Assembly: GCA_000165345.1 (NCBI GenBank)
Contig: CM000436.1
Span: forward strand, 288,001 to 352,000
Direction: 5' to 3'
Length of the DNA stretch: 64,000 bases
How positions within the stretch are numbered: the first letter of the stretch is position 1; each line of letters opens with the position of its first letter. Shown one piece after another: positions 13,963 through 50,492 of this stretch. A program made the position numbers and the translations under genes. The notes under the pieces were generated by a model. That model was not told where the DNA came from and ran no database searches. It saw only the letters and a list, made by a program, of their open reading frames with translations.

Positions 13963-15555
13963 TTAATGAAAGATCATTTCTCCAATAAGAACGGTGATTC
14001 CAAAAAATCGAACTGAGACTTTACTTAGATTAGTATTATCATTACATGAACATTTATTATATGAAACAATTTCTTTTTCAGTTTCAAAATAAAATATGTC
14101 ATCCCTGACACTAAGTAAAATGGCGGGAGAAGCTTCACAATGGTAATAAATCATAAAAGATTGACCAGGAACATTCCAAAATATATTTTTGGAACTTAAA
14201 AGAATTTCATTCAAGAATTTAAGACATTTTACTTTAAGTTTTGTGGAAATTTGTATTGGATATAAACTTGAAAGTAGAGATGTAATAGGTGTGTTACTAT
14301 TACGTCTTGTATTATTTTTAGAAGAAATAGTTGATACAATAATATTACCAATGCTAGGATGAATATTGCAATTAAATGTTGCAGAAGAGATATAAATGGG
14401 TCCATTACATGTATTGTATGTATGATCATGAATAGAAATAGCTTTACATTTAACAGATTCACTGAAAGGGAGTACATGATAAGATTGACCAACTTTAAGT
14501 TGACCATATTCAATATATAATGATGCTTTAAATTCAGATGAAGATACTGAGATGATTTCTAGAATACATGCAGAAAAAGAAGTAAATTGTTTAGATTCTT
14601 TATGACAATGACATTCAATAGGGCGTGGTATAGATCTTTTTGAACTTTGATTAATGCTTGATAGAATTTCAAACAAACTAGGCCCTTGATACCAAGAAGA
14701 AAGTTCTTTGGGAAAGGTGTTATTTTTATCATTAAGAATATTGACTCCATGATATGCACTTATTGGTAAAAAAATAATATTTGAATCATTTTTAATATCA
14801 GCAAGTTCTAAATTTATATAATTACTTATTGTATTAACAATATTTGAATAAACTTGTTCATCCCAATTACATAGATCCAATTTATTAACAGCAAAAATAA
14901 TATTCGATACATCTGCTAGAAGTGAATAAATAATATGTTCAATAGTTTGGCCTTTTTGAAATCCTGAATCAAATCCTGAGCTATCAATAACTACAATAAT
15001 ATTATCAGAAAACATTGATATTGAAAAGCTGTTAGGTATAAATTCAGAATGTCCTGGTGCATCCAATATTGTAACAAGTTTTTTTTCAATCATCATACTT
15101 TTAGCTGATATATTGATTGTAATTCCTCTTTCCCTTTCATCATCACAATCATCAAATATCCAAGCATATGCAAAAGATCCTTTTCCAATGATCTCACTTT
15201 CTTTCTTGTACTTTCTCATCACTCCCTCACTAATTAGTCCCAAACTCACAAATAAATGACCCATCAAAGTTGATTTACCAGAATCAACATGGCCTAACAC
15301 TACACAGCTGTAATTATCTATTGTAGGTGTTGATATTATTTCATTTTTCATCTGAATTTTTACTCCTTTATCCTGATTTTGTTTAGCCACATGTTTTTTA
15401 TCTGTTTGTACTGTAGGTTTTGTCTTTACTGTTTTTGTTATTGTTTCTCTTTCATATGCCACATTATCATCATCATCTGAATAGTAATCAGAGTCATAGG
15501 CATCATAATAATCATCATCTGTCAATTCCACATACTTTGATCGTGTACGTGCCAT
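13963..15555 (-). CDS. HBS1/eRF3-family translational GTPase (EF1-alpha-like) with an acidic Tyr-rich N-terminal extension
   Basis: The track ORF starts at GTG 15561; the first ATG is at 15553-15555 (MARTRSKYVEL). G1 GHVDSGKSTLMGHL, G3 ILDAPGHSEF and G4 AVNKLD motifs are present in EF1A-family spacing. A length of about 530 aa, the N-terminal extension and the divergent C-terminal beta-barrel region fit HBS1/Ski7 or eRF3 rather than EF1A itself. Confidence 0.75.
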   Translation of the reverse strand: MARTRSKYVELTDDDYYDAYDSDYYSDDDDNVAYERETITKTVKTKPTVQTDKKHVAKQNQDKGVKIQMKNEIISTPTIDNYSCVVLGHVDSGKSTLMGHLFVSLGLISEGVMRKYKKESEIIGKGSFAYAWIFDDCDDERERGITINISAKSMMIEKKLVTILDAPGHSEFIPNSFSISMFSDNIIVVIDSSGFDSGFQKGQTIEHIIYSLLADVSNIIFAVNKLDLCNWDEQVYSNIVNTISNYINLELADIKNDSNIIFLPISAYHGVNILNDKNNTFPKELSSWYQGPSLFEILSSINQSSKRSIPRPIECHCHKESKQFTSFSACILEIISVSSSEFKASLYIEYGQLKVGQSYHVLPFSESVKCKAISIHDHTYNTCNGPIYISSATFNCNIHPSIGNIIVSTISSKNNTRRNSNTPITSLLSSLYPIQISTKLKVKCLKFLNEILLSSKNIFWNVPGQSFMIYYHCEASPAILLSVRDDIFYFETEKEIVSYNKCSCNDNTNLSKVSVRFFGITVLIGEMIFH

Positions 15556-24632: not shown

Positions 24633-25918
24633 TATTGTAAACAGTTCTTTATATACTAGTGATAATTTTCCAATTTATTTCTAATAATAATTAAAATATT
24701 AATATTAATAATAATACTAATATTAATATTAATATACCCTTGATTAATTTTCTCTTTTTTTATCAACTAGATTATTATAAATTATATATTTATTTTCTTT
24801 AAATCACTATTTCATACAATATTACATCTTACATATTTCATTAATTAATTATATTATTATTTCTTTATTAAATTTTAATATTCGCCGGTACTAAATTAAT
24901 TTGTGGGAGCATTTCCCGCCCAACTCCTCATATTTCTATTATATCTTTTGCATTATAATTTATATATTTTATTAATACTATTTATCCCGCCAAATTCTCA
25001 AAATTGTGCTTGCTTATCAACCAAATGGAAAAATTACTATAAAGAAATAAGGTTAAAGAAACTAGAGTTTACAAAAAAAAGTAAAATACTGAAAGAATAA
25101 ATCCAAACCAGATTTTATTCATAATTTTCTATATATATTCTAGTCATGGAATGAAAGAAAAGGTCGAATTTTTATCTTAATATTCATATTTACTTGTTAT
25201 AATTAACATTTTTCCTTTAATTTATGTAAAATGTGCACATAATTCAATTATTCTGATTTTGCCGCCCAAATATTCTTTAATTTCTGTTGTGTGTATGTTT
25301 TGTTTTCGTGTAATTTGCATGAATGTATAAATAACAAAGGGCGGCAGCATGTAAAATTTTAATAAGATTACTAATTAAAAGCTATAATTATATTAAAAAA
25401 TATCTATAAAGTTAAACATAATGAAAGTAATATAAGATAATTTAATTTTTAAATTAAATATAAATATTATATTTTTTACTTTTTTCGAGAAAATAAAGTT
25501 AATTTTTATACAAAATATTCGAATATTGCAAATAATTTAATAAAATACAAAAATGCATGACTTTGCCGCCTACACCGGTATATAATTTTGAATTAAAAAA
25601 AAAATTACACGTAATATTAAGAGGAAAAGAATAGGATTTTCTCTTTATTGAAATAACGATGACGATTATTAATATTATCATTATTGTTACTATTACTGTT
25701 GTAAGTGTTACTAATATTAATTTAAGAGTTGTTAATTATTATTGATTTCAATGCATTCAATATAAATGCTATCAAATGATAATAATAAGAGTTTTTTATT
25801 AATATTAGTAATAAAGGAAGCTACATTAATAGTATTTTTCACTTTTTTAATAGTTTTTAGTAGGAAAAAAAAAGTTACAATTAGATTTCCTTCTACTTGA
25901 ATATTACTGTTGTTTTAC

Positions 25919-30409: not shown

Positions 30410-33400
30410 ATGTTTGGGAAACCAAATAGTAAAGGAGTGGGGGGTAACAAATTAGTTATTGGTGCTAATGTGAGAAATAACAAAGATTTAGATATTCCAA
30501 TATCTTTTGGAAGATCTTCTAAGGACTATATAATAGAAAAAAAGAAAGAAAAAGAAAAGAGGATTTATGAAAGAATTAAAGGAAATAAAATGAAAATTAT
30601 ATCTTATTATGTATTACAATACAATTCATATAAACTTAAAAAAAGAGAATTTTGTAATGATTTGATTCATTTAATATCACAAAATCATAAAGACATAAAC
30701 AAATTGATTCAAATCTTTAGATTCACTCTAAAAATTAGTTCTAATGGTATTGAACAAGATATTGAAAGATTTAATATGATTATTGAGAATATTCATACAA
30801 ATTTTGAGAAAGTTTCTATTGAAATATCATTCAGTAATCTTTTATTTCTCTTTAGAAATTGTCTAATATTAATATTTCTTAATGATCAAAATAAAATTCA
30901 TAATATTAATAAAAATTTGGTAAAAAATCTTGCTGATCAAATATTTTACTCATTTTTTTCAAGATCTAATTTTCAAGATCAAAAGGTACCGAATATGCAA
31001 ATTAATAAGAAAAATTTTATTAACATGATTTTTAATTTTTTAATGATTGATTTATTTTTTATTAGATATTTTGAATTAAAAATCTTAAATAAAGAACTTG
31101 AAAATGAAATTATTATTGATATATTTAATGAAGTTTTTCAACTTTGTATATCCAAATTATCCAGCAAAGATAAATTGAATTTTTATTATATGGGTAAAGA
31201 TTTAATAGATTTTCCTAAAAGTGATCACTTTCTATTAGAAAAATCTAAAAAATTGAGTAAATACAATAATTCTCAAATGGAAATATTTTTTAAAAATAGA
31301 TATTTTTGGATTATATCTTGTTTATTTACTATTTTATTTAAAACTAACAATATTATTACAAAAGTTAAAACTCAAGAATTATTTCAAACTTATTTAGAAC
31401 TTTTGGATTTGGATTCTTTTCAAAATTGGATCATGAATGAAAATCAATATTCTATTAGAGTTATTAAAAGTCCATTTCAACAAATTCCTCCAAATTCACC
31501 CTTTTCTTTACTATTACTAAATTATTCTTTCTTTAATTATATTCAAGTTAATAAGAATTATTGTAAATTATCCAAAGTTATCAAACTTAATGAATTAAAG
31601 AAAATGAAAGAAACTGATCAAAAAGAATTTGTAAATACTATTGAAAATAATCTTTTGTCTATTTACTATATAATCAGTTCTTGGAATTTCTCACCAGATA
31701 CTTTAATTACTATAGACGAGACAATTTCTAACAAGAATTATACTAATAGAGATGAAATTATTCAAATGATTAGTTTTTTATTTCAAATAATTATACAAAA
31801 TAATAATACACAAATCAATTCAGATCAATCAAAATTTATCAAAGAAAAATTAAAGATTATGTATTTGATTCGTTTATATACTTTATTTTTAGATTTTCAA
31901 GGGAAATTCTTACTATTAAGTACTTATATAAAAAATACAGATATTATTAAAGATCAAAATATATTTTTTGGAATAAATAATCAACAATTAAATGAAAATC
32001 AACAATTATTCTCAAAAAATACAATTAATCAAATAATTCAACCCATTTTAAATTTGGCCTTGGATTGTGCATGCAGAGACGAGACAAGTTTAAAACATGC
32101 AATTAATATAATAAATTTGATGAATGATATTTATTTTCCATTAAATCAGGTACCAAATATAATATTTGAAAATATATATTTTTATAATAATATATTTACT
32201 AAAAATAAGGTAACTTATTTACATAATGCATTGGATTTATGTATTGATAAATCTGATCATATTAGTAACGATAATTATAATCGTGATCATCATCAATTCA
32301 TGACAAAAAGAAATCAAAGGAGGAATAGAATTAATATTTTCCATGATGATGATGATGATGATGATAATAATAATAATAGTAATAATAATATTTGTATTTT
32401 AAAAAAGATGAGATTTTTCTTCTTAATTAGTGATGATAATAATGATGATGAAGATAAATTGCAAGTATTTCATAAAAGTCAAGATCATGAATTCTTGGAG
32501 AAAATTTATTATAATAATTATTCAAATGATTACCATAATTTTCAACATTTTTGTGATATTATGTCAAAATCTAAACTAAAAGTATTTCATGAATTACAAA
32601 ACTTGGTACTTAATTATCTTTCTTTTGATACATGTTGGGTACTTGTATTATTTTTATCCATACATAATAGAATAATATTCAATAATAATGGAAATATGAA
32701 TTCTTTCTTAATTGATATAATTGAAGGAAAAGATAATATGAATATTGATAATAATGATTATTATAGTAATAATAATCATATTGGAAGACTTTTAACACTT
32801 TTTGGTATTTCATTAAACCATCAACTCCAATTTTTAGATGATTATGAAATTAAGAAAAGCTTAGAAATCATATTATTAAAAAATTCAAGCTCAAATTCAA
32901 ATAATTCTGATTTTAATAATGATAAACAAATAATAAGTTCCAAATTGATTCCATTTTTTAATTCCAATGAAATAATGATAATTGATAATAAAATTATATC
33001 AGGAATGAATGGATCTGAAATTTTGGATAATATTCTGGAAGATTTAAGTAAACATAAAAATTTAACCATGTTAATTAATTATGAAAATATTCAATGTATT
33101 AATAAATCCCAAAAAAATCTGTTAATAAATCCATTTTTATTAATAAACAATAGAAATCAATTAAACTATATTTCTTTATTTATTAATAATTTAACCTTCA
33201 CAATCTTGAAAATGATGATGTTTGAAATAAAAGATAAAAATACTGGAAATGAATTAAATATGATATATAGAAGTCAAAATAGTAATAGTATTAGTATCAA
33301 TAATAATAATAATCATCATCATCATCATCATCATCTTGGAAAATTGATAAATATCTCGATTTTTGGAGAATTGACAAGAAGACTTTATCAGAATTATTTA

Positions 33401-35095
33401 AAATTAAACCATTTCCAAATGAAATTAGATGATCCAATAATAAAAATCCCTTGGACAATTTCTGAAGCTTCCAATTTACTTAAACCTAAAGATGTATTGA
33501 TTAAACAAGCTTTACATATTGAATCACTTGGATCTTTTCCTTCAAATAATCTTGGTGAATATGGATTTAGACTTAATGATGAAGATAGAAATTTGAATAA
33601 TTTTGAAGAATATGATGATCTTTATGAAGATGATGATGATGATAATGATAATATAAGTGGTTTGACCAATAATATTAATTATAATGATAGCAATATTAAT
33701 AATAATTATAATTTTAATATTGATAATGAAAAAAGATTAGCCAGATTGGATTTATTAAGAGTATTTGATTCGACTTTAAAATATGTTTCAAATAAATCAA
33801 AATTTGAATTATTAAGACGAGTATTAAGAGAAATGCCACATTTAATAGGATTTGAGGATAGACTTCATTTCTATTATCATTATATAGCAGAATTAAGATT
33901 TAATCATTATCAACCAGAATTATTTCATGAAATTCCAAGCTTTGAAATTAGAAGAACCCATATAATAAAAGATGGATTAAATAATATTGGAAGATTGGAT
34001 CCAAATAGATTAAGAGTAGCTTTTAGAATAATATTTTTGGATGAACAAGGAGATATAGAACCAGGTATTGATGGTGGAGGACTTTTAAAAGATTTTATTA
34101 CTAGTATTTCCAAAGAGCTTTGTTCAGAAAGTTTTGGTCTCTTTAAATCTTGTAAAGATAATACAATAATACCCAGAGAATATGATAGTTTAATAGAAAT
34201 ATCCAATAAGTTTAAAGACTTATTAATTGATGAACCACTAAGTTTAAAGAAATCCAATAATATTTTATATTTATTTGAATTTTTGGGAAAAATTGTAGGT
34301 AAAGCAATTTATGAAAAGATATTATTGGAAATAGAATTCAATCCAGTATTTTTAAATTCAGTTTTTGAACAAAATAATGATTTTACTGATTTATTAAATC
34401 TTGATGAAGAATTATATAAGAGTTTAAATTATATAAAAAGCTTAGAAAATTACCAAGAAGTGAAGAATCTTTGTTTAACTTTTTCGTTAACTTTAGATTT
34501 GGGATCTTTAACAGACGTTGGTAATAATAATAAACATCTTGAGATTGATTTAATTCCAAATGGAAGAAATATTCCAGTAAATAATGAAAATAAAATTGTA
34601 TATATAAAATTATTAACACATTATAAGTTAATAACAAGTATTAAACTTCAAGCTGAAGCTTTTCTTAGAGGTCTTAGTACAGTAATTCCAAATGAATCTT
34701 TAAGATTATTTTCACCATATGAATTACAATCATTAATTTCTGGAGTATATCAAAAATTGGATGTTAATAATCTTAGATTAAATACTTGTTATACTGGTTA
34801 TACAGAAACTTCTCAACAAATTATATGGCTTTGGGATATTTTAGAGAATGAATTTTCAACGGAAGAACAAGGAGAGTTTTTGTTATTTGTAACTTCTTCC
34901 AGAAAAGCTCCTTTGCTTGGATTTCAACATCTTAATCCAAAGTTTGGTATACAAATTGTTCCAGATAATACAAGATTACCAAGTGCTTCAACATGCTTTA
35001 ATTTATTAAAATTACCATCTTATAATTCAAAAGAAATCCTTAAATTGAAATTAAGACAAGCAATTTTCAATTCTAAAGGATTTGATTTAAGTTAA
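30410..35095 (+). CDS. HECT-domain E3 ubiquitin-protein ligase (large, N/D-rich insertions)
   Basis: The 1561-aa ORF has a C-terminal HECT domain: [25 protein letters not shown]..., [36 protein letters not shown] and [36 protein letters not shown] (the catalytic Cys context TCFN.L.LP.Y). Confidence 0.85.
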   Translation: [1561 protein letters not shown]

Positions 35096-35126: not shown

Positions 35127-36059
35127 TTATTTTTCTAAAGCTTTCTTAATTTCATCATATAATATTAGTACAAGTGCTCCACCTGTTCCTCTTAGTACAT
35201 TTGATAATGAACCTTTAAATAATGCTCCAACTCCTTCTTTTCTAATAATCTTTTTCAAACAATCATAAGCTCCAGTATATAAAACATCTTTCCCTTTCTT
35301 ACCAGCCATCATCATCATTCTTCTACGAATAGTATCAAATGGATAACATATTATACCAGCACTAGTTGTAACAGTTTGTGCAATTATCCATTTATAAAGC
35401 ATATTTTCTTGTTTCTGATTCTTAAAAAACATTTCTTTTGTTGTGTCATATAATCCAAAATAAGCTGCTCTATATACAAAAATTCCTTGTATTGATACAA
35501 AAAATCCTTGATATAAAGATCTAATACCACTTTGTTTTGAAATCTTCATAATGCAATCAAACATTCCCTTAAATTCTTTACTTCCATTCTTACCAATATC
35601 AGTAGCTAATCTTGTTCTTGCAAAATCTAATGGATAAACTATTCCAGAAGATGCAGCACCAGCCAAACCACCTGATAACATATTAACACCAAAAAATTTC
35701 CAGAAATCTGATTCTTTATTATAACGTGGCATCATATCTCTTATCATATCTTTAAATGCAAATCCAAATGCTTGTGTTGGAAAATATCTTATTACATTAG
35801 TTGTATTTCCTCTCCATAAACTTAATATTCCCTGTTCTTTTGATACTCTTCTTAAACAATCAAATATTCCAGCATATCTAGGAATTAAACCTTTAATAAT
35901 ATCTGGATTTGTATCTTGAGTTTGTAGAAGAAGTTTAACTCTTTCTATTGGTGCAACAGCTGTCTTACTAATTGTGGCAGAAATTCCACCTACAATAAAA
36001 TCTGTAAGGAAATTATTTTTTTTCTTTTTATTTTGTTTTTCTTCTTTTTTATTTTCCAT
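35127..36059 (-). CDS. AAC: mitochondrial carrier family ADP/ATP translocase
   Basis: The track ORF starts at TTG 36098; the first ATG is at 36057-36059 ([28 protein letters not shown]). It has three mitochondrial-carrier repeats and the diagnostic ADP/ATP carrier motif RRRMMM ([18 protein letters not shown]). An E2F-like site TTTGGCGGGAATT lies at 36342-36354, upstream. Confidence 0.9.
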
Positions 36060-36424
36060 TTTTAAAAAAATGTTCAGATGATAATTATTTAATTTCAATT
36101 TTCTTTAAAAGTTTTATTATATTAATTTCAATATTACCATATCACACCTTAATATTTCTCAAAAGAATTAATGTTTATATGTTAAATATTATAAACACAT
36201 GTACCAATAAATGTTTATAAATTTAAATACATAAGTGCATTAACAGATATTGAATATTTGTATTTATTTGATTATTCTTATTTTTGTTATTTCTTCCTTT
36301 GAATTTGCATTGATTTAATTTTAAAGTCAAATTTAGAAATTTTTGGCGGGAATTCAACCGTTTTTTTTTTTAAATTATTAATTGTCAATTATTTTCAATG
36401 AATTTATAAATTAAATATAAATAT

Positions 36425-39272
36425 TTAATTAGTGCAATATATTTCTTGTGCTGGAATAAGTTCATAATTAGCTCTATATTTTAAATATGCATTTTGACGA
36501 TGACTATTCCATGTTGTTGGAGCTTCTTGTATATTATCGGAAATTATTGTTTGATTATTAGAATTATTTATTCCTGTATTATTTGAATTAATAATATTAG
36601 AAAATGCAATTCTTTGTGCAATTAATGGTAAAATTTCATTGAGAGTTTCAATGAGTGGTATAAAATAGTCTAAAGTTAGTAAATATGTTCCATTACTTAA
36701 TCTTTTAGAATCAAAATTATCAAAATCAAATGATTCATAAGCCATTTGCATTGTTCTCCAGCCTGGAATGGTGTACTTACCATCAAACCATCCAAATGGA
36801 CCCATTTTGTTTTGTTCAGTAATATACCATCTTTGATCATATTTATATGTAACATTTGGTGCAATACAATGATTCATAACTTTAGTAATATTTGAAACTC
36901 CTTTATCATAATTTTTATCTAAATATGTGCTTTTTGGTATTAATAACCTTTTATTCATTAATTTTTGTGCGTGTAAATACTGTTGCTGGTTTTGCATGTT
37001 TTTCATTGATACAGATTTTGTAGTCTTGACTGTTTTCACTGGTGATTTTGTTGTTACTATTGTCACTCTTTTTGTAGTGGTAGTAGTTATTATTATAGGT
37101 TTTTTGGTTGTTGTTACTGTAGGTTTTCTAGTTGTAGTAGTAACTATTGGTTTTCTAGTTGTGGTAGTAGCTGTAGGTTTCTTAGTTGTGGTAGTTGCAA
37201 CTATGGGTTTCTTAGTTGTGGTAGTTGCAACTGTGGGTTTCTTAGTTGTGGTAGTAGCTGTAGGTTTTCTAGTTGTGGTAGTAGCTGTAGGCTTCTTAGT
37301 TGTGTTTGTCGTTCCAATGGGTTTCTTGGTAGTAGTTGTGTTAGTTGTCATTGTGGTTTTCTTAGTTGTGGTTGTAGTTCCAATGGGTTTCTTGGTAGTA
37401 GCTGTATAAGTTGCCACTGTGGGTTTCTTAGTTGTGGTTGTCGTTCCAATAGGTTTCTTGGTAGTAGTTGTATTAGTTGCCACTGTGGGTTTCTTAGTTG
37501 TGGTTGTCGTTCCAATAGGTTTCTTGGTAGTAGTTGTATTACTTGTCACTGTGGGCTTCTTAGTTGTGGTTGCCGTTCCTATGGGTTTCTTGGTAGTAGT
37601 TGTGTTAGTTCCCACTGGCTTTCTTGTTGTTGTTGTTGTTGTTGTAACCGTAGGTTTCTTAGTAGTTGTAAAAGTTGTAGTATTTAATGGTTTTGTTTCT
37701 TTATTTATTTTATCAATAGAACTTTCTTTTTCATTCAATGTTTCATCTCTATCTTTTTTAGTTAAAGATTCCAAAAAACTATTTAACCCATCCATAATTG
37801 TTGAATCACCAGAATTTGTATCTTTATTTGATTCTTCCTGTTGCATTTCTTCCTGCTCAAGTTCTAATTCGCTACTCTCTGAATCTTCAGTATTTGTTTC
37901 CTCATTACTGGTATCTGAATTGGTAACATCTGCAGAAGAAGAAGAAGAAGAAGAAGAAGTAGAAGTAGAAGTAGAAGTAGTAGTAGTAGTCATCTTCGTC
38001 GTTGTCGTCGTTGTTGATTGATTTTTTGAAGATATTGGCCTTTTTGTATTTGTAACACTTATTTGATTTGAAATATGAACCTTTTTTTCATTGTTACTCG
38101 ACATTTTGTCAATATTGTTACTTTTCGAGCTTTCAAATTGATTGTCTATTGTATTGCTACTTACAACTAAAGGCTCTTTATCTCCAATATATCTAACGAT
38201 TGTATCGTTAAAGTTAATTGGTTGGTAGTAAAGATGATCGTTAATTATTGGATTTTTAGCATTAAACCATTTAATTCCCATATTTGTATTAAAAAAAACA
38301 ATTCCTGCAATTGGGTAACTCATTATCAATGGTATTACATATTTTTGAGTAATACTATTACTATGAGTAACTACAACAATCTTTCTTGTTTCAAATTTTA
38401 AACAATTATTTACAAGCCAAAATAAAAATGATGAACTTGAAATTGTTTCAGACTTATTTCCAATTTTCGAATTAGTTAATTTTCCAGATTTTCCATAACC
38501 TGGTGGTGATACTGCTGCTACAGTAAAACCATTCTTATAAGCTTCATCTAATACTTTTGATTTTAACCAAGTATCCGCTATTAATTTTCCAATAAACAAA
38601 ACTAAACCTTTTTCTTCACTCTGATCTTGCTTCATTAATACTATTTCAATATCTAATTCTGATGAACAAGATAAAATTTGAGTTTTTGTAGTTATTAATG
38701 ATTTTGTATTTTTTGTTATACTATTAGATGTTTGTACTTTATCATTATTTTCATAAATATTACTTTCAATAAATATATTATTTGTATCATATGATGAAAA
38801 TACTAAAATAATCATTAGTTAAATTAAAAAAAAAAAAATTTTCAATTAATTTTAATATTAAATTAAACTTACCTAAAGATTGATAATAAAAATAACTAAA
38901 AATTGCTGGTACAAATATAAAAATTAATGTCAATATACCATTCAATTGTCTTAACTTTTTTCCTCTATGCGATTTTGGTTTTATACATGTTTTACCAATT
39001 ATCCAAGAAATGCCCCATGATATGATTGGAAAACCAAAAAATCCCATAAAAAATAATACTACTTGTATTCTATCTCGCTTATATTTTGTTCTCAGTAATG
39101 ATTTAGATGTTTTTCTTTGAATTATTTCCAGTATTGTTGTATTACTGTCCGTTAAATGATAATAATCATTTTTATCTCCAATATCAAAGTTCTCAAGTTT
39201 TTTATCTTCCTTATTATGCTCTATATTTAATTTTAAATTTTCAATATTATTTTTTCTATTTTCAGTGACCAT
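36425..39272 (-). CDS. chimeric membrane protein with N-terminal TM helices, an alpha/beta-hydrolase-like domain, a Thr-rich mucin repeat region and a C-terminal conserved domain; two exons
   Basis: Track ORFs 38787-39272 (-) and 36425-38815 (-) are joined by a 70-nt intron at 38803-38872. Exon 1 ends ...TAT CAA TCT TTA G|GTAAGT and the acceptor is TTTTAG|TA TTT TCA, in frame, giving ...YYQSL|VFSSYDTNN.... Exon 1 encodes two hydrophobic helices (VVLFFMGFFGFPIISWGISWII, ILTLIFIFVPAIFSYFYY). Exon 2 has a hydrolase-like block (GLVLFIGK...VAAVSPPGYGKSG...VVVTHSNS), acidic S/E tracts, about 25 tandem TTTTKKP(T/I)(V/G)(A/T) units, then a Cys/Trp-containing C-terminal domain. Confidence 0.6.
37040..37660 (-). 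repeat. tandem 27-33-nt minisatellite encoding TTTTKKPxxT mucin repeats
   Basis: The + strand shows repeated units such as gggtttcttagttgtggtagttgcaactgt, ggtttcttggtagtagttgtgttagtt and ccaataggtttcttggtagtagttgtattagttgccactgtgggtttcttagttgtggttgtcgtt. The opposite-strand artefact ORFs 36927-37409 and 37419-38021 are poly-V/L/F. Confidence 0.85.
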
Positions 39273-39656
39273 TTATTATTATTATTATTATTATTTTCCT
39301 TCAAGTTTTTTTAATTATTAACTTAATTTTTCTTCTTCAATTAAAAAAAAAAACAAGAATAAAAGAAAATCTTTTTTAGTTACTTAAAATATTAATGTTA
39401 TTGTATTTGTTGTCCACATAAAAAATGCATTCGTAATTTTACTTGCAATTTTGCATGCATGTAAAAAATGACGTAATTAGTTATTTAATAAAAGAAATTT
39501 TTGAGTGTGCCGGACCCTCCCGCCAATTCCACTACCAAGTAATAAATCAAATAATAAGAAATTATAACAAATAATTAAAAAAAAAAAGAAAAATGAAAAG
39601 AAAGAAAAGATAGAATGACCCAAGAAATATATATTTAAAAAATAAAATCAAAATTT

Positions 39657-41849
39657 TCAAAAATTAGCTACATTTTGTATAAATGGATGTGAGAAAGCTT
39701 CAAAAATATTAGGCCTATTTGCAGGATCATAAGTCAAAAGCCAGTTAATATATGATTTGCACTCTGAAGAAACATGATTTTCAAATATTGCACCCTTTTC
39801 AGCCTCTAAAGGTATCAATGAAAACGCTTCAGCAATAGAATTACTTCTTAAACCAAATGGCCTTCTTAAATGAAGAATCTCAAAAAATATACAACCAATT
39901 GCCCAAATATCAACTTTGTGAGAAACTATTCTTGGATTATCTAAAGAATCTCCTGGCCTTAATAGAATTTCTGGTGGCTGATACCAAACAGTACCACCTC
40001 CAATTCTCTCAATAATAATATTCCCAGATTCCTGATCAGATTGCTTACTAAGTCCAAAATCAGCAATTTTACAACATCCTCTATGGAGAATAATATTTCC
40101 AGGCTTTAAATCATAATGAATTATTGGATTCCTATTTGGAGTTATTCTATCACCATTTTTATCCAAGTTATTTAAATAAAGAATACCTTCAAGAATTTGT
40201 CTTATCCAAATAATTGCTAATTCTTCAGGAACATTACCATTTGTTTTTATAAATGTATCTAAATCTGGACCATCACACAGTTCCATAATTGTTACAAGCC
40301 TATCATTATCTACTTCAAAACAGTGAAGCATATTGACAATATTTGGATGTTTAAGATCTCTATGTAGCTTAATCTCATTACTTACTCTTTCTACGCAAAC
40401 CATTCTTTCATGTTCTGTCATATCAGGAGTAAGTTCATGAATTTTTGCAGCTGAAATACTCCAGGTATTCATATTTAATACTTCCCAAACCTCGGCAAAT
40501 CCCCCTTTTCCTATCATATTCAATAGAGTATATGCTTGAGAATCAGATAAAGTACTCAAACTGTTGTATCTTGAATTTTGTTGATGTCTAAATAGCCTGG
40601 ATTTTTTAACATATAGACTTCTTTCAATATCCAAGTTCATTCCTGATAATTCTAGTTTTTTTGTAAAATCTAATATATAATCTTGTCTTTTATTTAATAT
40701 AGAATAAGCAGTATTCTCTAAATTAGAATCCTGTTTCTTCCCAATCATTTCAATTCCATTCAAAATTTGATATGGAGTCTGATTTAGGTATCCTTGTAGA
40801 CGATTCTTTAAATTCATTAAATTCTGAAAGTTCAACCCATCTCTATAAATTTCATCATCAATATATCCTAGATTAATATGCGAAGTATAATGATTATTCT
40901 CAGCCATGTTGTTATTATTATCATCATTATTATTATTGTTATTCTTATTATTACTATCATTATTATTATCTGGATTAGTCGAGGCTAGTGTATTATAATG
41001 AACAATTTCACTTGAAGATATCTGGCTTTCTTCAATTTCTGATTTTTGTAACTCCTTCAAAGTATAACACGAATTATTCATGGAGTTTATACTACTTCTT
41101 TTACTTAAAGCCATACTTCCGCTGATTATTGATCCTTTAATATAACTATTTGCATCAAATTCTTTGTTTTCACTCGAATGTTGGGCTCTTTCAGTTATTA
41201 TATCTTGTGATATTCTATTGGAATTATCACTTTTTTCTTGTTCTTTTAAAATGATTTGCCTCTTTTTTTTCAATATATTGGCATTTGCAGCAGGAGCAAG
41301 ACCTACTTGAGATTCTTGCCAAAATAATTGATTTCTATTTAACTCTCTTTCAATCTTCTTAAGCTGAATTACTGATGTTTTAAAGCTATTCTTAATCAGA
41401 GCAAGCTTTCTTGTGAGATTTTGCTCATTGTCCTTTAGATTCTCTTTCATCAAAGTAATCTCATTACATTTCTCCATAATTTCTTCTATACTCTTATTAT
41501 TTCTTTCCATACAATCATAATCAACACAAGCTGAAATATTTTCCTTAATTTTAATAAGTTTTTCTTTCAATTTTACAATATTATCCAATATTCTATGCCT
41601 ATTTTCAGTATTATTAGATAAAGGTATCGCAAAATTTTGATCTCCTATTGACTGTTTTTCTTCATCAAGATGAATAAAAATTCCTCTTTTTTGTTGTATT
41701 CCATTATTGGAAGGGGAATGTAATCTCCCATAAAATGATTTATATCTACTCAAATACTTTGTTGCGAGAACTTGCTCATGCGCAGAAATTCTATCAATTC
41801 GATCTGAACTCAGGTCTAAATTACTTTCATTTCTATTTTCTAAATTCAT
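39657..41849 (-). CDS. TLK: Tousled-like serine/threonine protein kinase (TLK)
   Basis: An N-terminal coiled-coil region is followed by a C-terminal kinase domain with TLK-specific features: GKGGFAEV, IIHYDLKPGNIILHRGCCKIADFGLSK (TLK: IIHYDLKPGNILL...ITDFGLSK), GTVWYQPPE (TLK: GTYWYLPPE) and VDIWAIGCIFFEILHLRRPFG (TLK: [21 protein letters not shown]). Confidence 0.85.
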   Translation of the reverse strand: MNLENRNESNLDLSSDRIDRISAHEQVLATKYLSRYKSFYGRLHSPSNNGIQQKRGIFIHLDEEKQSIGDQNFAIPLSNNTENRHRILDNIVKLKEKLIKIKENISACVDYDCMERNNKSIEEIMEKCNEITLMKENLKDNEQNLTRKLALIKNSFKTSVIQLKKIERELNRNQLFWQESQVGLAPAANANILKKKRQIILKEQEKSDNSNRISQDIITERAQHSSENKEFDANSYIKGSIISGSMALSKRSSINSMNNSCYTLKELQKSEIEESQISSSEIVHYNTLASTNPDNNNDSNNKNNNNNNDDNNNNMAENNHYTSHINLGYIDDEIYRDGLNFQNLMNLKNRLQGYLNQTPYQILNGIEMIGKKQDSNLENTAYSILNKRQDYILDFTKKLELSGMNLDIERSLYVKKSRLFRHQQNSRYNSLSTLSDSQAYTLLNMIGKGGFAEVWEVLNMNTWSISAAKIHELTPDMTEHERMVCVERVSNEIKLHRDLKHPNIVNMLHCFEVDNDRLVTIMELCDGPDLDTFIKTNGNVPEELAIIWIRQILEGILYLNNLDKNGDRITPNRNPIIHYDLKPGNIILHRGCCKIADFGLSKQSDQESGNIIIERIGGGTVWYQPPEILLRPGDSLDNPRIVSHKVDIWAIGCIFFEILHLRRPFGLRSNSIAEAFSLIPLEAEKGAIFENHVSSECKSYINWLLTYDPANRPNIFEAFSHPFIQNVANF

Positions 41850-42305: not shown

Positions 42306-45300
42306 ATGAAGAGAAGTAAAAGCTACAGGGACAATGGTCGAAAAAAGTTTGAGAGGAAGACCACTGAAAGAAAGAAAGGTAGGTTTGAGTTAGGTGGCTC
42401 TTCCAATATTGATAAAAAGTTTGGAATCAATTTTCAAAAAATTGGAGTAAATCATAGGGAAATTGGTTATTTATACAATGTTCAAGTATCATCAGAATTA
42501 ATATCTGAATCTGGAACAGCATTTGATGGAATGGAAATTGGAACTCTAGAATCTTCATCAGAACTTATTGAATCTTATAAAGAACGTTCATGTCTTAATT
42601 TATATTTTATTAATAAACAAGGAATGACATTTAAAAGTCCATTCTTCTTTAGACCATATTTTTACTTGGAAGCACAAAAAGCTGTTGATATCCATTGGAT
42701 ATTAACCAATCTTGAACATAAATATAGAGATACTACTATAGAATTTACTAATATAATGAAAGAGGATTTAACTCTTGATAATCACTTAATTGGTGAAAAA
42801 AGAGAGGTTATTAAAGCTTCTTTTGATAATGTTAAGGAACTTGTTTCTATTAGAAATGAAATTCTTGATCATATCAAGAGAAATAAGCTTGAAAAAAAAA
42901 AGAATGAAAGTTTAAGTGCTTATTACGATCAGGATCAACAAAACAACTATGAAAATAAAACTCTTGATGTATTGGATTCTATTTCAGAAATTTACGAATA
43001 TGATGTTCAATATGAAGCACGAGTTATGATTGATAACTCCATTTCTATTGGAATGTGGTATGATTCTGTACGTTGGACTCATGAACTTTTGGAATTAAAA
43101 TGTTTAGATCATGATACTTCTGCTCCTGATTTAAGAAGTTTAGCTTGGGATATTGAAACTACTAAAGATCCTTTAAAGTTCCCTAATGTAGAGAAAGACC
43201 AAATTATGATGATTTCTTGTATGTTTGAAGGTCAAGGATACCTAATTACTAATAGAGAAATTGTTTCTGCTGATATATATGATTTTGAATACTCTCCTAA
43301 AAAGGAGTATGAATCATTCTTCAAATGTATTAATTATCCTGATGAAAAAGAACTTATTTGGGGATTTATTAAACTTATTCAGACTTTAAGACCTCATATC
43401 ATTGCTTCTTATAATGGAGATAATTTTGATTTTCCTTTTCTATATGAAAGAGCTAAAAAATATGATATCGATGTTTCCAAAGAATGGGGAATACGAATGG
43501 AAATTGATCATTCCTCTGGAGGAGGATTACAATCTTCTAATAAAACTATCTTTTCTGGAACTAATATTATTCATTTAGATTGTTTTAGATGGGTAGAAAG
43601 AGATTCATATCTTCCTTGTGGTTCTAGAGGTTTAAAAAGTGTTACTAAAGCAAAGTTAAGATATAATCCTGTTGAACTTGATCCTGAATTAATGGTTCCT
43701 TATGCAAAAACAAATCCTCAAGGTCTTGCAGAATATTCTGTTTCAGATGCAGTTGCTACTTATTTTCTTTATAAGACTTATGTTCACAGATTTATATTTG
43801 CTTTAGCTACTATAATTCCTTTATCTGGAGAAGATCTTCTTAGAAAAGGGTCTGGTACTCTTTGTGAACATTTATTAATGAAAGAAGCTTTTACTAAGAA
43901 TATTTTATTTCCAAACAAAAAAGTTCAAGAAACTATGGAATTTTATCAAAATAGACCCATCTTAAATAGTACTTATGTTGGAGGTACTGTAGAATCTTTA
44001 TGTAGTGGAGTATTTAGAGCTGATATTCCTGAAAAATTCTGTTTAAATACCGATACCCTTAAACATTTAATTAAAATATTAGATACTACTTTGAATTTTG
44101 GTATTAAAGATTCTGGTACTACAATTGATAATATTGAAAATTATGAACAAGTCAGAAATGAAATTCTTGAAAAATTGCAAAGTTTATTAGAATCTCCCAG
44201 AATTAAAATTGAGCCTTTAATATATCATCTTGATGTTGCTGCTATGTATCCTAATATTATTCTAACTAATAGATTACAACCAACAGCAGTAATAGAAGAG
44301 ACAACTTGTATGAAATGTCCATTCAATTCTGAGTCAAAACTTTGCCAAAGAAGGATGAATTGGAGATGGAAAGGAGATGTTTTTCCAATTTCCAAAGGAG
44401 AGATGGAGAGAATGATTAATCATATCCAAATTGAGACTTTTGAAAATGTTAAGAATGAAATAGGAGCAGTTAACAAGAAAAAGAAATTTGAAGATCATGA
44501 AAGTGATTCAGAAAATGATGATAAGATGGAATTTACTGGAGAAAATGTTAATATTAATAATAAAGAAAAGATTAAATGGTCATCTTTAACTCCTAGACAA
44601 CAATCCGAGATTTTAATACAAAGAATGAAAGCTTATTGTAATAAGATATATAGAAAACAAACTGAGAATATTGAAGAGACAAGATCTTCAATAGTTTGTC
44701 AAAGAGAAAATCCTTTTTATATAGATACAGTTAGACGTTTTAGAGATAGAAGATATGTTTATAAAGGTAAGAAAAAAGAAGCAGAAGAAAAGTTAAAGAG
44801 AGCTGAATTATTAGGAGATTTATTAGCAGTACAGGAAGCACAGAATGAAGAGCTTTTATATGAATCTTTACAATTAGCTCATAAATGTATTTTAAATTCT
44901 TTTTATGGCTATGTTATGAGAAAAGGGAGTAGATGGTTTTCTATGGAAATGGCTGCTATTGTTACATGGGTAGGTGGTAATGTGATTAGAGAAGCAAGAT
45001 CTTTAATGGAAGGTATCGGTAGACCTTTAGAATTAGATACCGATGGGATTTGGGCAATACTTCCAAAAGGATTTCCAGAGGAAATCACTTTTAGATTAAA
45101 GGATGGTGGTAAGAAGAAGATTCATTATATTTGTACTTTGTTAAATCAACAAGTTCACAAAAGTTGGACAAATGATCAATATTTGGAATATGATGCAGAT
45201 CTTGGGAAATATAATATTAAAGTAGAGAATTCAATATATTTTGAAGTGGATGGTCCATATAAATGTTTCTTTATTCCAGCTTCTGATAAACAGAATAAGC

Positions 45301-48300
45301 TTTTAAAGAAGAGATATGCAGTTTTTGATTTTGAAAATAGGCTTAAAGAACTTAAAGGGTTTGAATTAAAGAGAAGAGGAGAGCTTCAATTGATAAAAAT
45401 TCTTCAGGAGGAGTTATTTCCAGCATTTTTAAAAGGTAATTCAAAGAAAGAAGCATATGATCATGTAGCTGCAATATCAAAGAAATGGTTAAGTTTGATA
45501 GATACTAAAGGAAGAGGTATTTTAGATGATGAACAATTATTCTTTTTGATTTCAGAGTCAAAGAATATGTCAAAGAGTGTACAACAGATGGGGAATGCTA
45601 AGTCAATGTCAATTACAACAGCAAAGAGACTTTTTGAATTTCTTCAGAATCCTTCATATATTCAGGATAAGAATATTGTTTGTAAGTTTATTGTTTCAGA
45701 GTTCCCTAAAGGAGAAGATAAAAGTCAAAGAGCAGTTCCTCTTTCTATTTTTTCAACACCTTTAGAGACAAGAGTTTCATGGCTTTCTAAATGGCTGAGA
45801 ATAAGTAAATCTGGTGGAAGGAGAGAAAAGGATGAGTTGGTGGAGCACAGGAGGAAAGCAGATGTAGATATAACGAGTGGCAGTGGTGGTGGCAGTGGTA
45901 TTCTTAATAAAGAGAATGAGAATAACAAATGGAATGTTCGTAACATTCTGGACTGGGAGTACTATAAGAACAGGCTTACAAACACTATTTTAAAGATAGT
46001 TATAATTCCTGCAATTAACCAGGGGGTTCCAAATCCTCTTCCAGAATTAGAGGTACCGAGTTGGGTAAGATACCATTCAGAGATAGTTGGTACAAATCAA
46101 CAAAAGATTTCAGAGTACTTTAATGTTGTTAAGAAGGAGGAGAAAAAGAAGAGCAGTTTCTCTGAACTTCCTAATTATAATTCTATTATTCAAGGCCGAA
46201 GTCAAGATCATGGTCAAACTCAAGATCAGGGTCAAACTCAAGATCAGGGCCAAATTCAAGATCAGGGTGTAATTCAAGACCAGGGCCAAAATCGAAATCA
46301 AAACTTAACTTTAGGTCAAGGCCAAATTCAAGATCAGGGTCAAACTCAAGATCAGGGTCAAACTCAAGATCATGGCCAAATTCAAGATCATAGCCAAATT
46401 CAAGATCATGGCCAAACTCAAGATCAGGGTCAAACTCAAGATCAGGGTCAAATTCAAGATCAGGGTCAAATTCAAGATCATGGCCAAACTCAGGCTTGTA
46501 AAATTGTAGAAACCAGAAATAACAACAGTATTTCAAAATTGAATGGAAAACTGACAAAAAAAGAGAGGATTGAATTATTCAAGGAAAAAGGATTTAAATC
46601 CTGGTTAGAGTACCATAAGAAATTTTGGTTGGAGAATTTTCATGCATTTAATGAAAAACAGTCAGAACTTGAAAAGAAGCTAAAAAATATTGATATAGAA
46701 AAACTTGAATATTTTGGAAAAGGTAATACTGCAAAAGGTATCGAATTTTTATCTGAATATATTTTCTTAACGAAAGGAAGATTTCATATTTTAGATATAT
46801 ATCCTCTTAGTATCCAACAAAGGAATATTAAAAGAAATTATGATGAAGATCTACTGGGATTTTATAATGTTGTTATGTACTCTGAAGAAACAGGAGATTG
46901 TTTTACTGTTACATTTGAGTTCCTTAGACGTTTTTATATTGCTACAAATGTTCAAATTCAAATTATGGATAATGATGATGATGGTGAATTTATTACAAAA
47001 TCTATAGCTACAGGGAAAGAGTTACCTAGAGGGGTACCGTATAATCATTTAACAGAAGTAATAATTTCAGAGAGAAGATTTCAGAAATCAAAATCAACAT
47101 TGATTTGTGATAATAATACTGTTGGTATTTATGAGACAAATTTACCACTTGAATTTTCTATTTTAGAAAAATTTGGGAATATCATAGAAAGTAATACTCC
47201 TAATGTTGAGAAATTACTTCTTAAGAATGGAGCAATTACTGATAAATTTTGGAATTCTGCTGGTGGATTAAAAGAGAAGAATTTGAATTATGGAGATATA
47301 ATACATTGGTTATTTCTTTCAATATGTACTTTTGAAGAAAGAAAATGTTTCTCTTTAACAGATTTAAGTAAGAAAAGAATTTACTTCTTTCTTGGATTAG
47401 GACCAACTATTTCTAATAATATTCTTAAATCTGAGCTTCATAGACAAATTCAACAAGATCAAAGATTGGAAAAGATTACTGAAATTCATGTTAATTATTT
47501 TAAGACAACAAAAGATTGTTTAGAAGAATTGGATCGACTTTTGAAAGATTTAATCCAAGAATTTCCAAAAGAACCTATAGTTCTTTTAATACAATCAATG
47601 GTTAGATTAGAAGAACTTAAAACACATAATAGTGAATTAAATCTTTATAAAACTATATTAAGAGAATATATTTCTGAAATGGAACATAATAAGAAAGTTA
47701 TTGAAACTAAAATAGTAACATTATGGGAAGAAATAATAGATTTTGATTCAAGTAATTCAATATTTAGTAGATTTGATTGGCATAAAGATTCGATTAGATA
47801 TTCATTAAAAGCTTTAAAAGAAGCAATTAATAAACTTCAGCTATCATTAGAACTTTCTAAAGCTTTAAGACTTCCAGTATTATATTTACTTCAATTTAAA
47901 AAAAACTTAACAAACTTTTTATATGATATAATATATTCCAGAGAACTTCATTCTATGGGATTATTAAGCTGGGGATCTTTAAGATCCACTCCAGATCTTG
48001 GGAATCCTAAGTTAATCCAACTTTCAAAAAGTGATTGGGATCTTAGAAGACTTGGATATTTAATGCCAACAAAAGATCTTAATAACTCTAAAGGAGGAAG
48101 AGTAGGTGGAGGACATAGTAATTGTAATACTAATAGCTTAGATGAATTGGATGTATTGGAAGTAGTAAGACCAGGAATCTATAGAAACTATGGGGTTCAA
48201 TTGGATTTCAAGCAATGGCTAATAATTGAATCTGTAAGAAATTGTAGGTTACTCTCTGATAAGTACAACTTGGATGACTTTGAACAAGGAGAGAAACGTA

Positions 48301-50492
48301 TTCTTGGAGCTGATTGTAAGAAAAAGAATTCTGAAAAAGATGATAAGAATAAAGATGTTTTGATCTATAATCTAGGTAGTAGAAAGCATTTGAGTAATCC
48401 AAATAATAAACAAGGCTTATTGATTTCTCAGCCTTTATATAACCATTCATCATTATCCACAAGCTCAGCTTTTCTATGTTTAGAGAAAACTATCAATAGA
48501 ATGAGATCAGTAATTGAAAACCATGAAAAAGTGGAGTCTATCTTTAGAATATACAATGCTCAAAAAACTTGTGAGAATGAACAATTTGATCAAATGAATG
48601 ACAATATTCTTGGTAAAGAAGAAGAGAAAGGGGGGAGAGAAGATAGGAAAAGGAGGAGAGAAGAAGAGGAGAAAGGGGAGGAAGAGGAAGGGGAGGAAGA
48701 GGAGGGGGAGGAAGAGGAAGAAGAAGAAGAAACTTCAAGCTTACTTTTTGAGTTTATGGTAACTCTCCAGGAAAGATTCTACTCTTGGTTATCTTCTTCC
48801 AACTCTCTCTTGTATGACCCAGCTTTAATAGAGATGACAAAAGATTATGCTCATTGGTATTTTAAATCTCTTGAATCTGATATGAGAGAAATGGGAATCC
48901 AAGTAGTATATGGAAATATTAGAAAAATGATCTTAACATTTAATTTGGATGAATTGAAGAATAATAGTATTAGGAATAATAGTGATCTCCAAAATCAGTT
49001 TTCTAAACTTATGCAAATATTAAATAACAGAGAACTATATTCTGGTATTTCTTTAGATCCTACTGTAGAGTATAAGGCTATGATTCAAATTGACAGAACA
49101 AATTATATTAGAAGAACCTTGGGAGGAGGAGGATCTGGAAGTTTGGAAGATCCATATGAAATGAATCTAAGTTTATTGAACTACTTTCCAATAAATTCTA
49201 GAAAATACATTGTTGGCGAGATTTCTAACTTTTTGATGGAGCCTCTTAGAGAATTGAGAAACTACTTCAAGAAGAATTCCAATTTATCTCTTAAGGAATC
49301 TTTGCAAATATTGGGAGACATAGTTTTGGAACAATTTGGACCTTTTAGTGAGAATTTTCAAAACTTTTTGCAGGCTATTTCCAATCCAAATACATATATT
49401 GTAAGTAAATATGGAATTCAACAGTTTGATGATCCACTAAATGATATTGGATGGAATGATGATATAATAGGGGAAGGAGAGGAAGTGAAGGAAAAGAGGA
49501 AGATTATTGAAGAGGAGGAAGAGGAGGAGGAGGAAGAAGAAGAAGAAGAAGGAAAAAGAAGGAAGAAAAAGAATGCAAACTCAATATTAGAAGAAAACGA
49601 CGATACCCTATTACTAAAGAGGAATCTAGAAAATCTAGACATTAATAATAATAGAGATGATATTCCTTTTGCTATATACCCAAATTCAATAAAGAAAAAA
49701 GGAAATAGCCATTCATTAAGGATTGAAGCTTCAACAAAAAGAATGGAAGAAAAAGGAATAAGAAAAAGAAGAAATTTCAAAGACTTATTTGAATTCCCTC
49801 CATGTATTGGAAAAGCTTATAATGGAAATAAACCCTCATTAAGCTTGGAATTAATAAAATTATTTATTTATATTTGGGGATTGGATAAATCCTTTTCAAT
49901 AGATGAATCTAAACAGAAACAATATGAACAAATAATTTTTATGGTTTGCCAAGCTGTGGATATTTCAGAGTTTAATCCAATAGTTACAGAGAAATGGACT
50001 AGTCCTTTAATTCCTTATATAATCAAAGACTTTTCTTGTCCAAATTGTTTTGAAATAGAAGATTTTGACTTTACTGGGAATGCAATACAAGATGAAGATG
50101 ATCTTGGATTATCAAGTAATAATTACAATAATATAATTAGACCAAGGTTTACTTGGTATTGTAGTCATTGTAACTTTTCTATTGATAATGAAATTTTAGA
50201 AGAAAAGCTACTTCTTGAATTCTTTGAAAGATTGGAAGTTATTCAATCACAAGATATTCTCTGTTCAAGATGTAACTCCGTTCAAATAGGTTACATGCAA
50301 AAGCATTGCGATGAATGTATGGGAGAATTAACAACAAGACTTGGAAATCATAAAACTTTCCATAATTTCTTTACTCTATTCAACTCGGTTGCTCAATATT
50401 ATTCTGATCTAAATAATGAAGAAGATGAAAATCCACAATTCCAAGGCCTTATTGAATTTAAAAATATGTATGATAATATTTTATACATTTAA
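42306..50492 (+). CDS. POLE: DNA polymerase epsilon catalytic subunit A
   Basis: The 2728-aa ORF has exonuclease motifs ([19 protein letters not shown]), polymerase motif A ([18 protein letters not shown]), motif B ([24 protein letters not shown]) and the C-terminal Cys modules CPNCF...CSHCNF...CSRCN...CDEC. Low-complexity insertions are present. Confidence 0.95.
   Translation: [2728 protein letters not shown]
46197..46494 (+). repeat. about 16 tandem 18-nt repeats (caagatcagggtcaaact and variants) encoding QDQGQ[TI]
   Basis: Direct reading gives [97 protein letters not shown] inside POLE. The antisense artefact ORFs 46110-46301 and 46186-46557 are periodic. Confidence 0.9.

Follow-up and report, generated by a model that had tools for sequence, protein, structure and literature searches.

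cgd8_1220 of Cryptosporidium parvum is probably a single two-exon gene of an apicomplexan family with an expanded, variable linker

The gene cgd8_1220 of Cryptosporidium parvum lies on the minus strand of chromosome 8, at positions 36425-39272 of the window analysed here, a stretch of 64,000 nucleotides (nt) from GenBank assembly GCA_000165345.1 (contig CM000436.1, positions 288,001 to 352,000). All coordinates below are those of the window. Our results indicate that this locus is probably one two-exon gene rather than a fusion of unrelated parts, and that its product belongs to an apicomplexan family in which the linker has become expanded and variable. An earlier reading made from the letters of the DNA (hereafter the sequence-only reading) had described the product as a chimera of a transmembrane anchor, a hydrolase-like domain and a mucin-like repeat array. 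However, the architecture of transmembrane segments, hydrolase-like domain and C-terminal domain spans the Apicomplexa, and in Cryptosporidium muris and Cryptosporidium andersoni the two globular domains occur without the array. The protein is therefore better described as a member of an old single-gene family, in which only the spacer is new.

Gene structure and splicing

The gene consists of the following parts:

38873..39272, minus strand: exon 1 of 400 nt, encoding residues 1-133 and the first base of codon 134; start and splice as in the deposited models KAL5366852.1, QOY39873.1 and WKS79371.1
38803..38872, minus strand: spliceosomal intron of 70 nt in phase 1, GTAAGT...ACTAAT...TTTTAG, with 9% G+C
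36425..38802, minus strand: exon 2 of 2378 nt, encoding residues 134-925 and the stop codon TAA (36425-36427)

The reading frame opens with the ATG at 39272. The exons join in frame, with the G of exon 1 and the TA of exon 2 forming Val134, and yield a product of 925 residues instead of the roughly 940 estimated in the sequence-only reading. The intron itself had been placed correctly: seven species share it, with phase and position unchanged, and an identical spliced model has been deposited (WKS79371.1, 'threonine repeat-containing protein', 925 of 925 residues identical).

In six species the phase-1 intron interrupts the same codon, just after the second hydrophobic segment, always with a GTAAGTTT donor and an AG end. 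Its length is 70 nt in C. parvum, 66 nt in C. meleagridis, 68 nt in C. canis, 140 nt in C. felis, 68 nt in C. ryanae and 80 nt in C. bovis. C. muris is the seventh species in which it is visible, together with an additional upstream intron. Reading through the intron would meet stop codons in four of the six species and shift the frame in five of the six, including C. parvum. This is further supported by the gene spans in the NCBI annotations, which leave space for an intron of equal size. From one species to another the intron is free to change in length and frame, and both of its flanks are conserved as protein. Because conserved exons flank a freely diverging GT-AG segment in this way, the comparative evidence for splicing appears strong.

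An alternative explanation might be that the locus encodes two unspliced products, namely a 161-residue open reading frame (ORF) with two transmembrane segments (38787-39272) and a separate ORF of 796 residues, or a 736-residue form of it starting at M190. Several public annotations are in line with this: the Iowa II model XP_627029.1 (Q5CW90) is the 796-residue ORF alone, without exon 1, and both the BGF model WRK33870.1 (694 residues) and the C. tyzzeri model TRY49703.1 omit exon 1 and begin at M190, which counts against a two-exon gene. Unspliced, exon 1 meets a stop at 38787, and the 796-residue ORF then starts at an ATG inside the intron. Yet this ORF begins with residues (MIIL) that lack conservation, and starting at M190 would cost the hydrolase-like domain conserved strands (QILSCSS...IEIVL). 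Moreover, the module with the two transmembrane segments is joined to the same domains in Neospora, Rhytidocystis and a transcript labelled GHVT. At least three models of the C. parvum lineage (KAL5366852.1, QOY39873.1 and WKS79371.1) use the splice, as do deposited models of C. meleagridis, C. canis and C. felis. With the divergence of the intron between flanks conserved as protein added to this, we consider two separate products very improbable.

The comparative evidence thus bears on the competing public models, of which those with 796 and 694 residues are probably truncated. The IOWA-ATCC model QOY39873.1 (CPATCC_003927, 'Alpha/Beta hydrolase fold containing protein') has 883 residues and the same splice. 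KAL5366852.1 also has the same splice and counts 922 residues, with three residues fewer in the Ser/Thr tract and the substitution Y599N. Two orthologue models wrongly translate the intron, C. meleagridis KAK9170801.1 and one C. canis model.

A few further models deserve comment. KAK9170801.1 contains an extra insert of 21 residues (GKFNLILKLIKIFLYKNLTII) where the splice should be; the intron measured there in another C. meleagridis assembly has 66 nt, so that no frame shift arises. The C. muris model CMU_025150 (400 residues; DS989727.1) lacks the exons for both hydrophobic segments. These exons are readable upstream of it (at about 2560-2945 of the fetched stretch), split by the additional intron and the conserved phase-1 intron. 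A Logan-derived copy of exon 1 has one extra residue in the translated intron (FFFFNN versus FFFFN), implying a small length difference.

Conservation across Apicomplexa

From the N-terminus to the C-terminus, the spliced product comprises:

38997..39068, minus strand: hydrophobic segment 1 (residues 69-92), rich in Gly, Pro and Trp, from the Kyte-Doolittle profile; net charge +7 on each flank
38943..38996, minus strand: basic loop GKTCIKPKSHRGKKLRQL (residues 93-110), net charge +7; the loop is also basic in distant homologues
38874..38942, minus strand: hydrophobic segment 2 (residues 111-133), a probable membrane span by hydropathy; net charge -3 on the flank that follows
38168..38689, minus strand: divergent, truncated alpha/beta-hydrolase-fold domain (residues about 172-345)
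37931..38014, minus strand: Thr/Ser tract (residues 397-424), encoded by a polymorphic (ACT/TCT)n microsatellite
37691..37930, minus strand: acidic low-complexity linker (residues 425-504), 20% Glu and 11% Asp
37097..37690, minus strand: mucin-like array (residues 505-702) of 19 units of 8-13 residues, TTTTKKP plus T/I-V/G-A/T, ending [KR]K[PT]
37028..37096, minus strand: degenerate tail of the array (residues 703-725)
36428..37027, minus strand: conserved C-terminal domain (residues 726-925), with invariant C779 and C923 and the motifs GPFGWFDGKYTIPGW, EYF..L and IYC

When 1.84 billion representative proteins were searched exhaustively with HMMER, a profile spanning both globular domains returned 17 proteins. 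Several of these cover both domains, and every named source is apicomplexan. Outside Cryptosporidium the sources were Neospora caninum (NCLIV_055600), Eimeria necatrix, Cyclospora cayetanensis, Rhytidocystis pertsovi and Siedleckia nematoides, and the matches also included the GHVT transcript (eukprot) and a few short fragments. No haemosporidian or piroplasm match appeared in this search. Word-indexed homologue searches found Cryptosporidium proteins only, and in these searches the full-length query was swamped by low-complexity candidates.

The family members share an ancestral layout. A variable N-terminus precedes the two hydrophobic segments, which are separated by a strongly basic loop; then come the divergent alpha/beta-hydrolase-fold domain, a short linker and a C-terminal domain of ~160-200 residues that two invariant cysteines bracket. 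The pair of hydrophobic segments, with the basic loop in between, is also present in Neospora, Rhytidocystis and the GHVT transcript, where segment 1 is conserved as well. In the gastric species C. muris and C. andersoni, ~60 residues separate the two domains and there is no Thr array. In the intestinal Cryptosporidium species, the linker is a low-complexity insert of ~330 residues, made up of the Thr/Ser tract, the acidic stretch and the Thr-Lys-Pro array. Only the spacer is thus a lineage-specific insertion: the linker of two anciently coupled domains became a fast-evolving insert in the intestinal lineage.

The C-terminal domain had been recognized in the sequence-only reading as a conserved region containing Cys and Trp, in agreement with our alignments. 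A Pfam scan of this domain gave no family match. C267, C779 and C923 are conserved in every family member aligned, and C179 is found in every Cryptosporidium species and in all distant homologues but Neospora. Further motifs found family-wide are GP.G.F.GK...GW, EYF..L and a C-terminal YC.

Two of the homologues show peculiarities of their own. The Cyclospora homologue OEH77728.1, labelled 'tubulin delta', begins with a long unrelated stretch that resembles a coiled coil; its gene model has probably been fused or misnamed. In Siedleckia nematoides the hydrolase-like domain occurs a second time, in a shorter paralogue whose elbow reads C-Q-S-N, and the family may therefore have duplicated in blastogregarines.

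The hydrolase-like domain

The motifs GYGKSG (residues 235-240) and VVVTHSNS (residues 276-283), on which the sequence-only reading had based a hydrolase-like module, are indeed present, and the fold it proposed is supported by structure and profile comparisons. The module is not free of cysteine as had been stated, however, since C179 and C267 fall inside it. The Pfam family Abhydrolase_1 (PF00561) matched the protein of the window with 13.4-14.9 bits (E 0.02-0.06), below the gathering threshold of 25.8 bits. The same family recurred in six of the nine orthologues, with a best E of 0.0016 and all matches under the cut-off.

An AF2 model built from the nine orthologues had a mean predicted local distance difference test score (pLDDT) of 48.6. 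Its core reached 66-80, with strands and helices ordered as they typically are in the first two-thirds of an alpha/beta hydrolase. The model predicts a central, mostly parallel beta-sheet with flanking helices that can be superposed on solved members of the fold. The best 50 Foldseek matches listed were essentially all alpha/beta hydrolases, NDRG3 among them. In addition, the family-wide apicomplexan profile found 1imj as its best match among the PDB sequences (E 0.01), in an alignment covering the region of strand 3, helix A and strand 4 together with the S/D-x-P-G-x-G loop. Genus-level profiles against the same sequences yielded nothing useful, and their matches to advillin and UTP-glucose-1-phosphate uridylyltransferase were rejected as chance.

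Several observations weigh against this assignment. Every sequence match to hydrolases falls under the curated thresholds. The model of the N-terminal domain is poor (pLDDT <50 for residues 144-233), so that the fold rests on ~100 reasonably modelled residues. No strand 8 and no loop with a catalytic His could be found in the family alignment or the model, as neither a strand nor a conserved His follows RYIGD and low complexity begins directly thereafter. D341 of RYIGD, at the position expected for the catalytic acid, is invariant in Cryptosporidium, but other apicomplexan homologues have G, E, T or K there, and the elbow serine is replaced by Gly in one homologue. On the whole, the assignment to the alpha/beta-hydrolase fold is supported, and membership of any specific hydrolase family is not.

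The residues that could take part in catalysis are encoded at:

38360..38362, minus strand: codon of Ser281, at the nucleophile-elbow position (T-H-S-N-S)
38234..38239, minus strand: codons of Asp322-His323, a dyad invariant in every family member aligned

Ser281 is predicted to lie at the turn that leads from a modelled strand (113-118 in domain numbering) to a helix (123-133), as expected for a nucleophile elbow. It is the final residue of the Abhydrolase_1 match, at profile position 77, and is conserved in all lineages but the GHVT transcript. Because the elbow serine has been kept but the canonical strand-8 His loop is missing, the domain may be either a non-canonical enzyme or a pseudo-enzyme. 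Catalysis has more likely been lost or is non-canonical, and a binding or scaffold pseudo-enzyme is favoured over a non-canonical enzyme.

Possibly, the protein is nevertheless a working serine hydrolase, such as an esterase, lipase or deacylase of the ABHD14 type, in which Ser281 acts with a non-canonical base and acid, for example Asp322-His323. This would be consistent with the conservation of the elbow serine in all lineages but one, with the invariant Asp-His dyad, and with N282 and the SPPG.G loop, which are invariant in nearly all aligned family members. The closest structure and the closest sequence match are also both ABHD14B, an active enzyme. Yet the strand-8 or histidine loop is absent, and the geometry of a canonical triad is impossible with adjacent Asp and His. 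H323, the sole invariant His, stands beside D322 upstream of strand 7, in a stretch with pLDDT <50. Furthermore, one homologue has Gly for Ser, and pseudo-hydrolases such as NDRG3 were also among the Foldseek matches. Hence, we regard a working hydrolase as a doubtful explanation, though one to keep in mind. The C-terminal domain was considered as a source of the missing strand 8 and His, as in a split hydrolase; this was rejected, as it contains no His or Asp that is invariant family-wide.

Membrane topology and proposed arrangement

No N-terminal signal peptide was found in the 925-residue protein, and hydropathy confirmed the two N-terminal hydrophobic segments predicted earlier (residues 69-92 and 111-133). 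Around them K50, P55, K56, H58, G60 and the motif KLRQLNG are invariant across Cryptosporidium. Segment 2 would act as an anchor with its N-terminal end in the cytosol and its C-terminal end out, so that all that follows it (hydrolase-like domain, spacer and C-terminal domain) would be turned towards the lumen or the cell exterior. This orientation is favoured because the loop carries a net charge of +7 and the flank after segment 2 one of -3. By charge, the loop would thus more likely be cytosolic and the C-terminal part outward, though the N-terminal flank is equally basic. With two membrane segments the orientation is ambiguous, and the surface or host-interaction role suggested in the sequence-only reading is putative. 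An outward C-terminal part would also be consistent with the four conserved cysteines, which would be oxidised, and with the sequon positions (N-x-T or N-x-S) NIT771 and NGT837, kept in 10 of 10 aligned Cryptosporidium sequences of the C-terminal domain. The Siedleckia homologue, which has only one anchor-like N-terminal segment, points in the same direction.

In this orientation the hydrolase-like domain would be membrane-proximal, and the spacer would hold the C-terminal domain tens of nanometres away. The sequence-only reading had pictured an enzyme-like head on a stalk; an N-terminal anchor would reverse this picture, placing the C-terminal domain at the far end of the stalk. Other Cryptosporidium mucins are O-GalNAc-glycosylated, and the Thr array would likewise be O-GalNAc-glycosylated, forming a stiff spacer. 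Our tentative proposal, which may well be wrong, is an undescribed apicomplexan family lacking a Pfam model, with two hydrophobic segments, a truncated hydrolase fold bearing the Ser and the Asp-His dyad, and a C-terminal domain bracketed by cysteines, in which a glycosylated spacer would part the domains and let the C-terminal domain act at a distance. If this is true, the intestinal Cryptosporidium species offer a natural experiment, where a length-variable glycosylated spacer separates domains that were anciently adjacent. The C-terminal domain might then act at a distance, for example on ligands of the host or the oocyst wall, with a non-canonical hydrolase at the parasite membrane.

A different arrangement might be that the N-terminus is cytosolic and that both segments span the membrane. 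The hydrolase-like domain, array and C-terminal domain would then all be cytosolic, and the array would be an unglycosylated disordered linker without exposure to the host. The lack of a signal peptide is in line with such a topology, and two spans would place both termini on one side of the membrane. Likewise, the N-terminal flank of segment 1 is strongly basic in Cryptosporidium (+7), and in Rhytidocystis the N-terminus is a very basic extension of ~200 residues whose translocation is improbable; this points to an N-terminus in the cytosol and possibly to a C-terminal part there as well. These points weigh against an outward orientation, as does the observation that low-complexity runs of Asn, Thr and Ser often occur in proteins that are cytosolic in this AT-rich organism, for instance in the neighbouring HECT ligase. 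However, the loop between the segments is likewise at +7, and the positive-inside rule would place it in the cytosol. The four deeply conserved cysteines, together with the sequon positions conserved within Cryptosporidium, fit an oxidising and glycosylating compartment, Siedleckia transcripts have a single anchor-like segment, and tandem arrays rich in Thr and Pro are, in Cryptosporidium, a typical feature of secreted mucin-like glycoproteins. The clash between a basic N-terminal flank and two full spans would be resolved if segment 1 were re-entrant, which it may be because it is rich in Gly, Pro and Trp. A wholly cytosolic arrangement thus seems possible, though rather unlikely.

Spacer composition and polymorphism

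Residues 505-725 contain 49% Thr, 17% Lys and 9% Pro, which makes the array a tandem Ser/Thr/Pro-rich sequence. The TTTTKKP minisatellite described in the sequence-only reading is thus present, although it counts 19 units of 8-13 residues instead of about 25 units of 9-11. Tandem Repeats Finder resolved a period of 27 nt with 6.8 copies at 37116-37304 and a higher-order period of 66 nt with 5.4 copies at 37285-37640 (88% matches), together with an (AGA/AGT)n microsatellite at 37934-37990. The length of the array may change by replication slippage or by unequal exchange between the 27-nt and 66-nt units.

Unit numbers were compared by counting the motif [KR][KR]P in deposited protein models, which derive from assemblies and not from amplicons. 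The C. parvum array had 19 units in the window, in Iowa II, in 43IA8 and in GCA_048859185.1, and 16 units in IOWA-ATCC and BGF. Among the other species, C. tyzzeri had 13 units, C. meleagridis 26 and C. canis 10. Relative to the window protein, the models from IOWA-ATCC and BGF lack 42 residues (126 nt) of the repeat array, within the 66-nt sub-array. Compared to GCA_048859185.1, the window showed a 9-bp indel at 37957-37965, in the Ser/Thr microsatellite, and one single-nucleotide polymorphism in the array at 37408 (Tyr/Asn). Copy number in the deposited models therefore differs between isolates, as in a variable-number tandem repeat, and the length polymorphism that had been predicted is apparent. 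As a point against this, the difference between 19 and 16 units could partly reflect collapse of repeats in an assembly.

In C. bovis and C. ryanae the units of the array differ, being KTNTTTKVTNTTNKAS and NITNNNQKS. In the assemblies of these two species the orthologue is split over two contigs that end inside the array, resulting in separate 5' and 3' partial proteins.

Indel polymorphism of the gene is in agreement with a published list of 13 indel genes of C. parvum, C. hominis and C. meleagridis, which contains cgd8_1220 ('hydrolase') and also cgd7_4020 (PMC7718795); the supplements of that paper do not list cgd8_1220. The primers of TP14, MM18 and MM19 had no match within the window, and the locus is not among these established chromosome-8 markers. 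The repeat could be added to the existing typing loci, and it also breaks short-read assemblies.

Comparison with known proteins

The hydrolase-like domain can be compared with ABHD14B / CIB (PDB 1imj) and the CIB-like hydrolase Ta0194 (3bdi), which are minimal, lid-less alpha/beta hydrolases. ABHD14B has a complete Ser-Asp-His triad. In contrast, cgd8_1220 is without the strand-8 histidine loop and its acid is not conserved, and its elbow reads T-H-S-N-S, which differs from the usual pattern of small residues ending in Gly. The likeness to ABHD14B is one of fold; since the match lies under the family thresholds, we do not claim membership of the ABHD14 family. The NDRG family, represented by NDRG3 in the Foldseek results, likewise combines an alpha/beta-hydrolase fold with an incomplete catalytic triad. 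It differs in that it has no specific sequence relationship with the cgd8_1220 family, which retains the elbow serine.

The array resembles those of gp900/cgd7_4020, gp40/15 and the Muc family, which are also Thr-rich, contain Pro and arise from mini- or microsatellites that vary between isolates or species. The gp900, gp40/15 and Muc proteins begin with a signal peptide and are not known to contain an enzyme-like domain. Unlike in these proteins, the array of cgd8_1220 lies internally, as a spacer that separates two ancient globular domains; two hydrophobic segments precede it, and there is no signal peptide.

No functional study of cgd8_1220 was found in the literature by accession, product name or orthologue identifiers. 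GenBank and CryptoDB already contain the gene with this splice, and its indels have been published, so that the sequence-only reading had recovered a known gene model. Our analysis adds that the repeat array is a lineage-specific insertion between ancient domains, that the family reaches across the Apicomplexa, and that the label 'hydrolase' describes a fold whose catalytic triad is incomplete.

Genomic context

The neighbouring genes on one side encode a HECT ligase (cgd8_1200) and an ADP/ATP carrier of the mitosome (cgd8_1210, Q5CW91, an accession adjoining Q5CW90), and those on the other side a kinase (cgd8_1230) and DNA polymerase epsilon (cgd8_1240). Because the flanking genes carry these identifiers, the gene in the window is, as judged from its position, cgd8_1220 / Q5CW90. 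The four neighbours, whose order is kept from C. muris to C. parvum, are located at:

30410-35095, plus strand
35127-36098, minus strand
39657-41849, minus strand
42306-50492, plus strand

Orthologous loci fetched from other Cryptosporidium species were syntenic, with the kinase, cgd8_1220, the carrier and the HECT ligase in this order. The 14.6 kb around the gene showed 99.88% identity to C. parvum GCA_048859185.1. A poly-T run at 39353, ~80 nt upstream of the ATG, differs by one base in length between the window and GCA_048859185.1.

An E2F-type promoter motif is known in Cryptosporidium, and an E2F-like octamer stands ~250 nt upstream of the ATG, where it is a possible promoter element:

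39518..39525, minus strand: octamer TGGCGGGA

The window holds eight copies of this octamer against 0.09 expected by chance, at 14121, 20704 and 36344 on the plus strand and at 24985, 28785, 29636, 30092 and 39518 on the minus strand. Another copy than the one upstream of the ATG lies between the stop codon of cgd8_1220 and the start of the ADP/ATP-carrier gene. The copies probably reflect the E2F-type promoter motif of Cryptosporidium.

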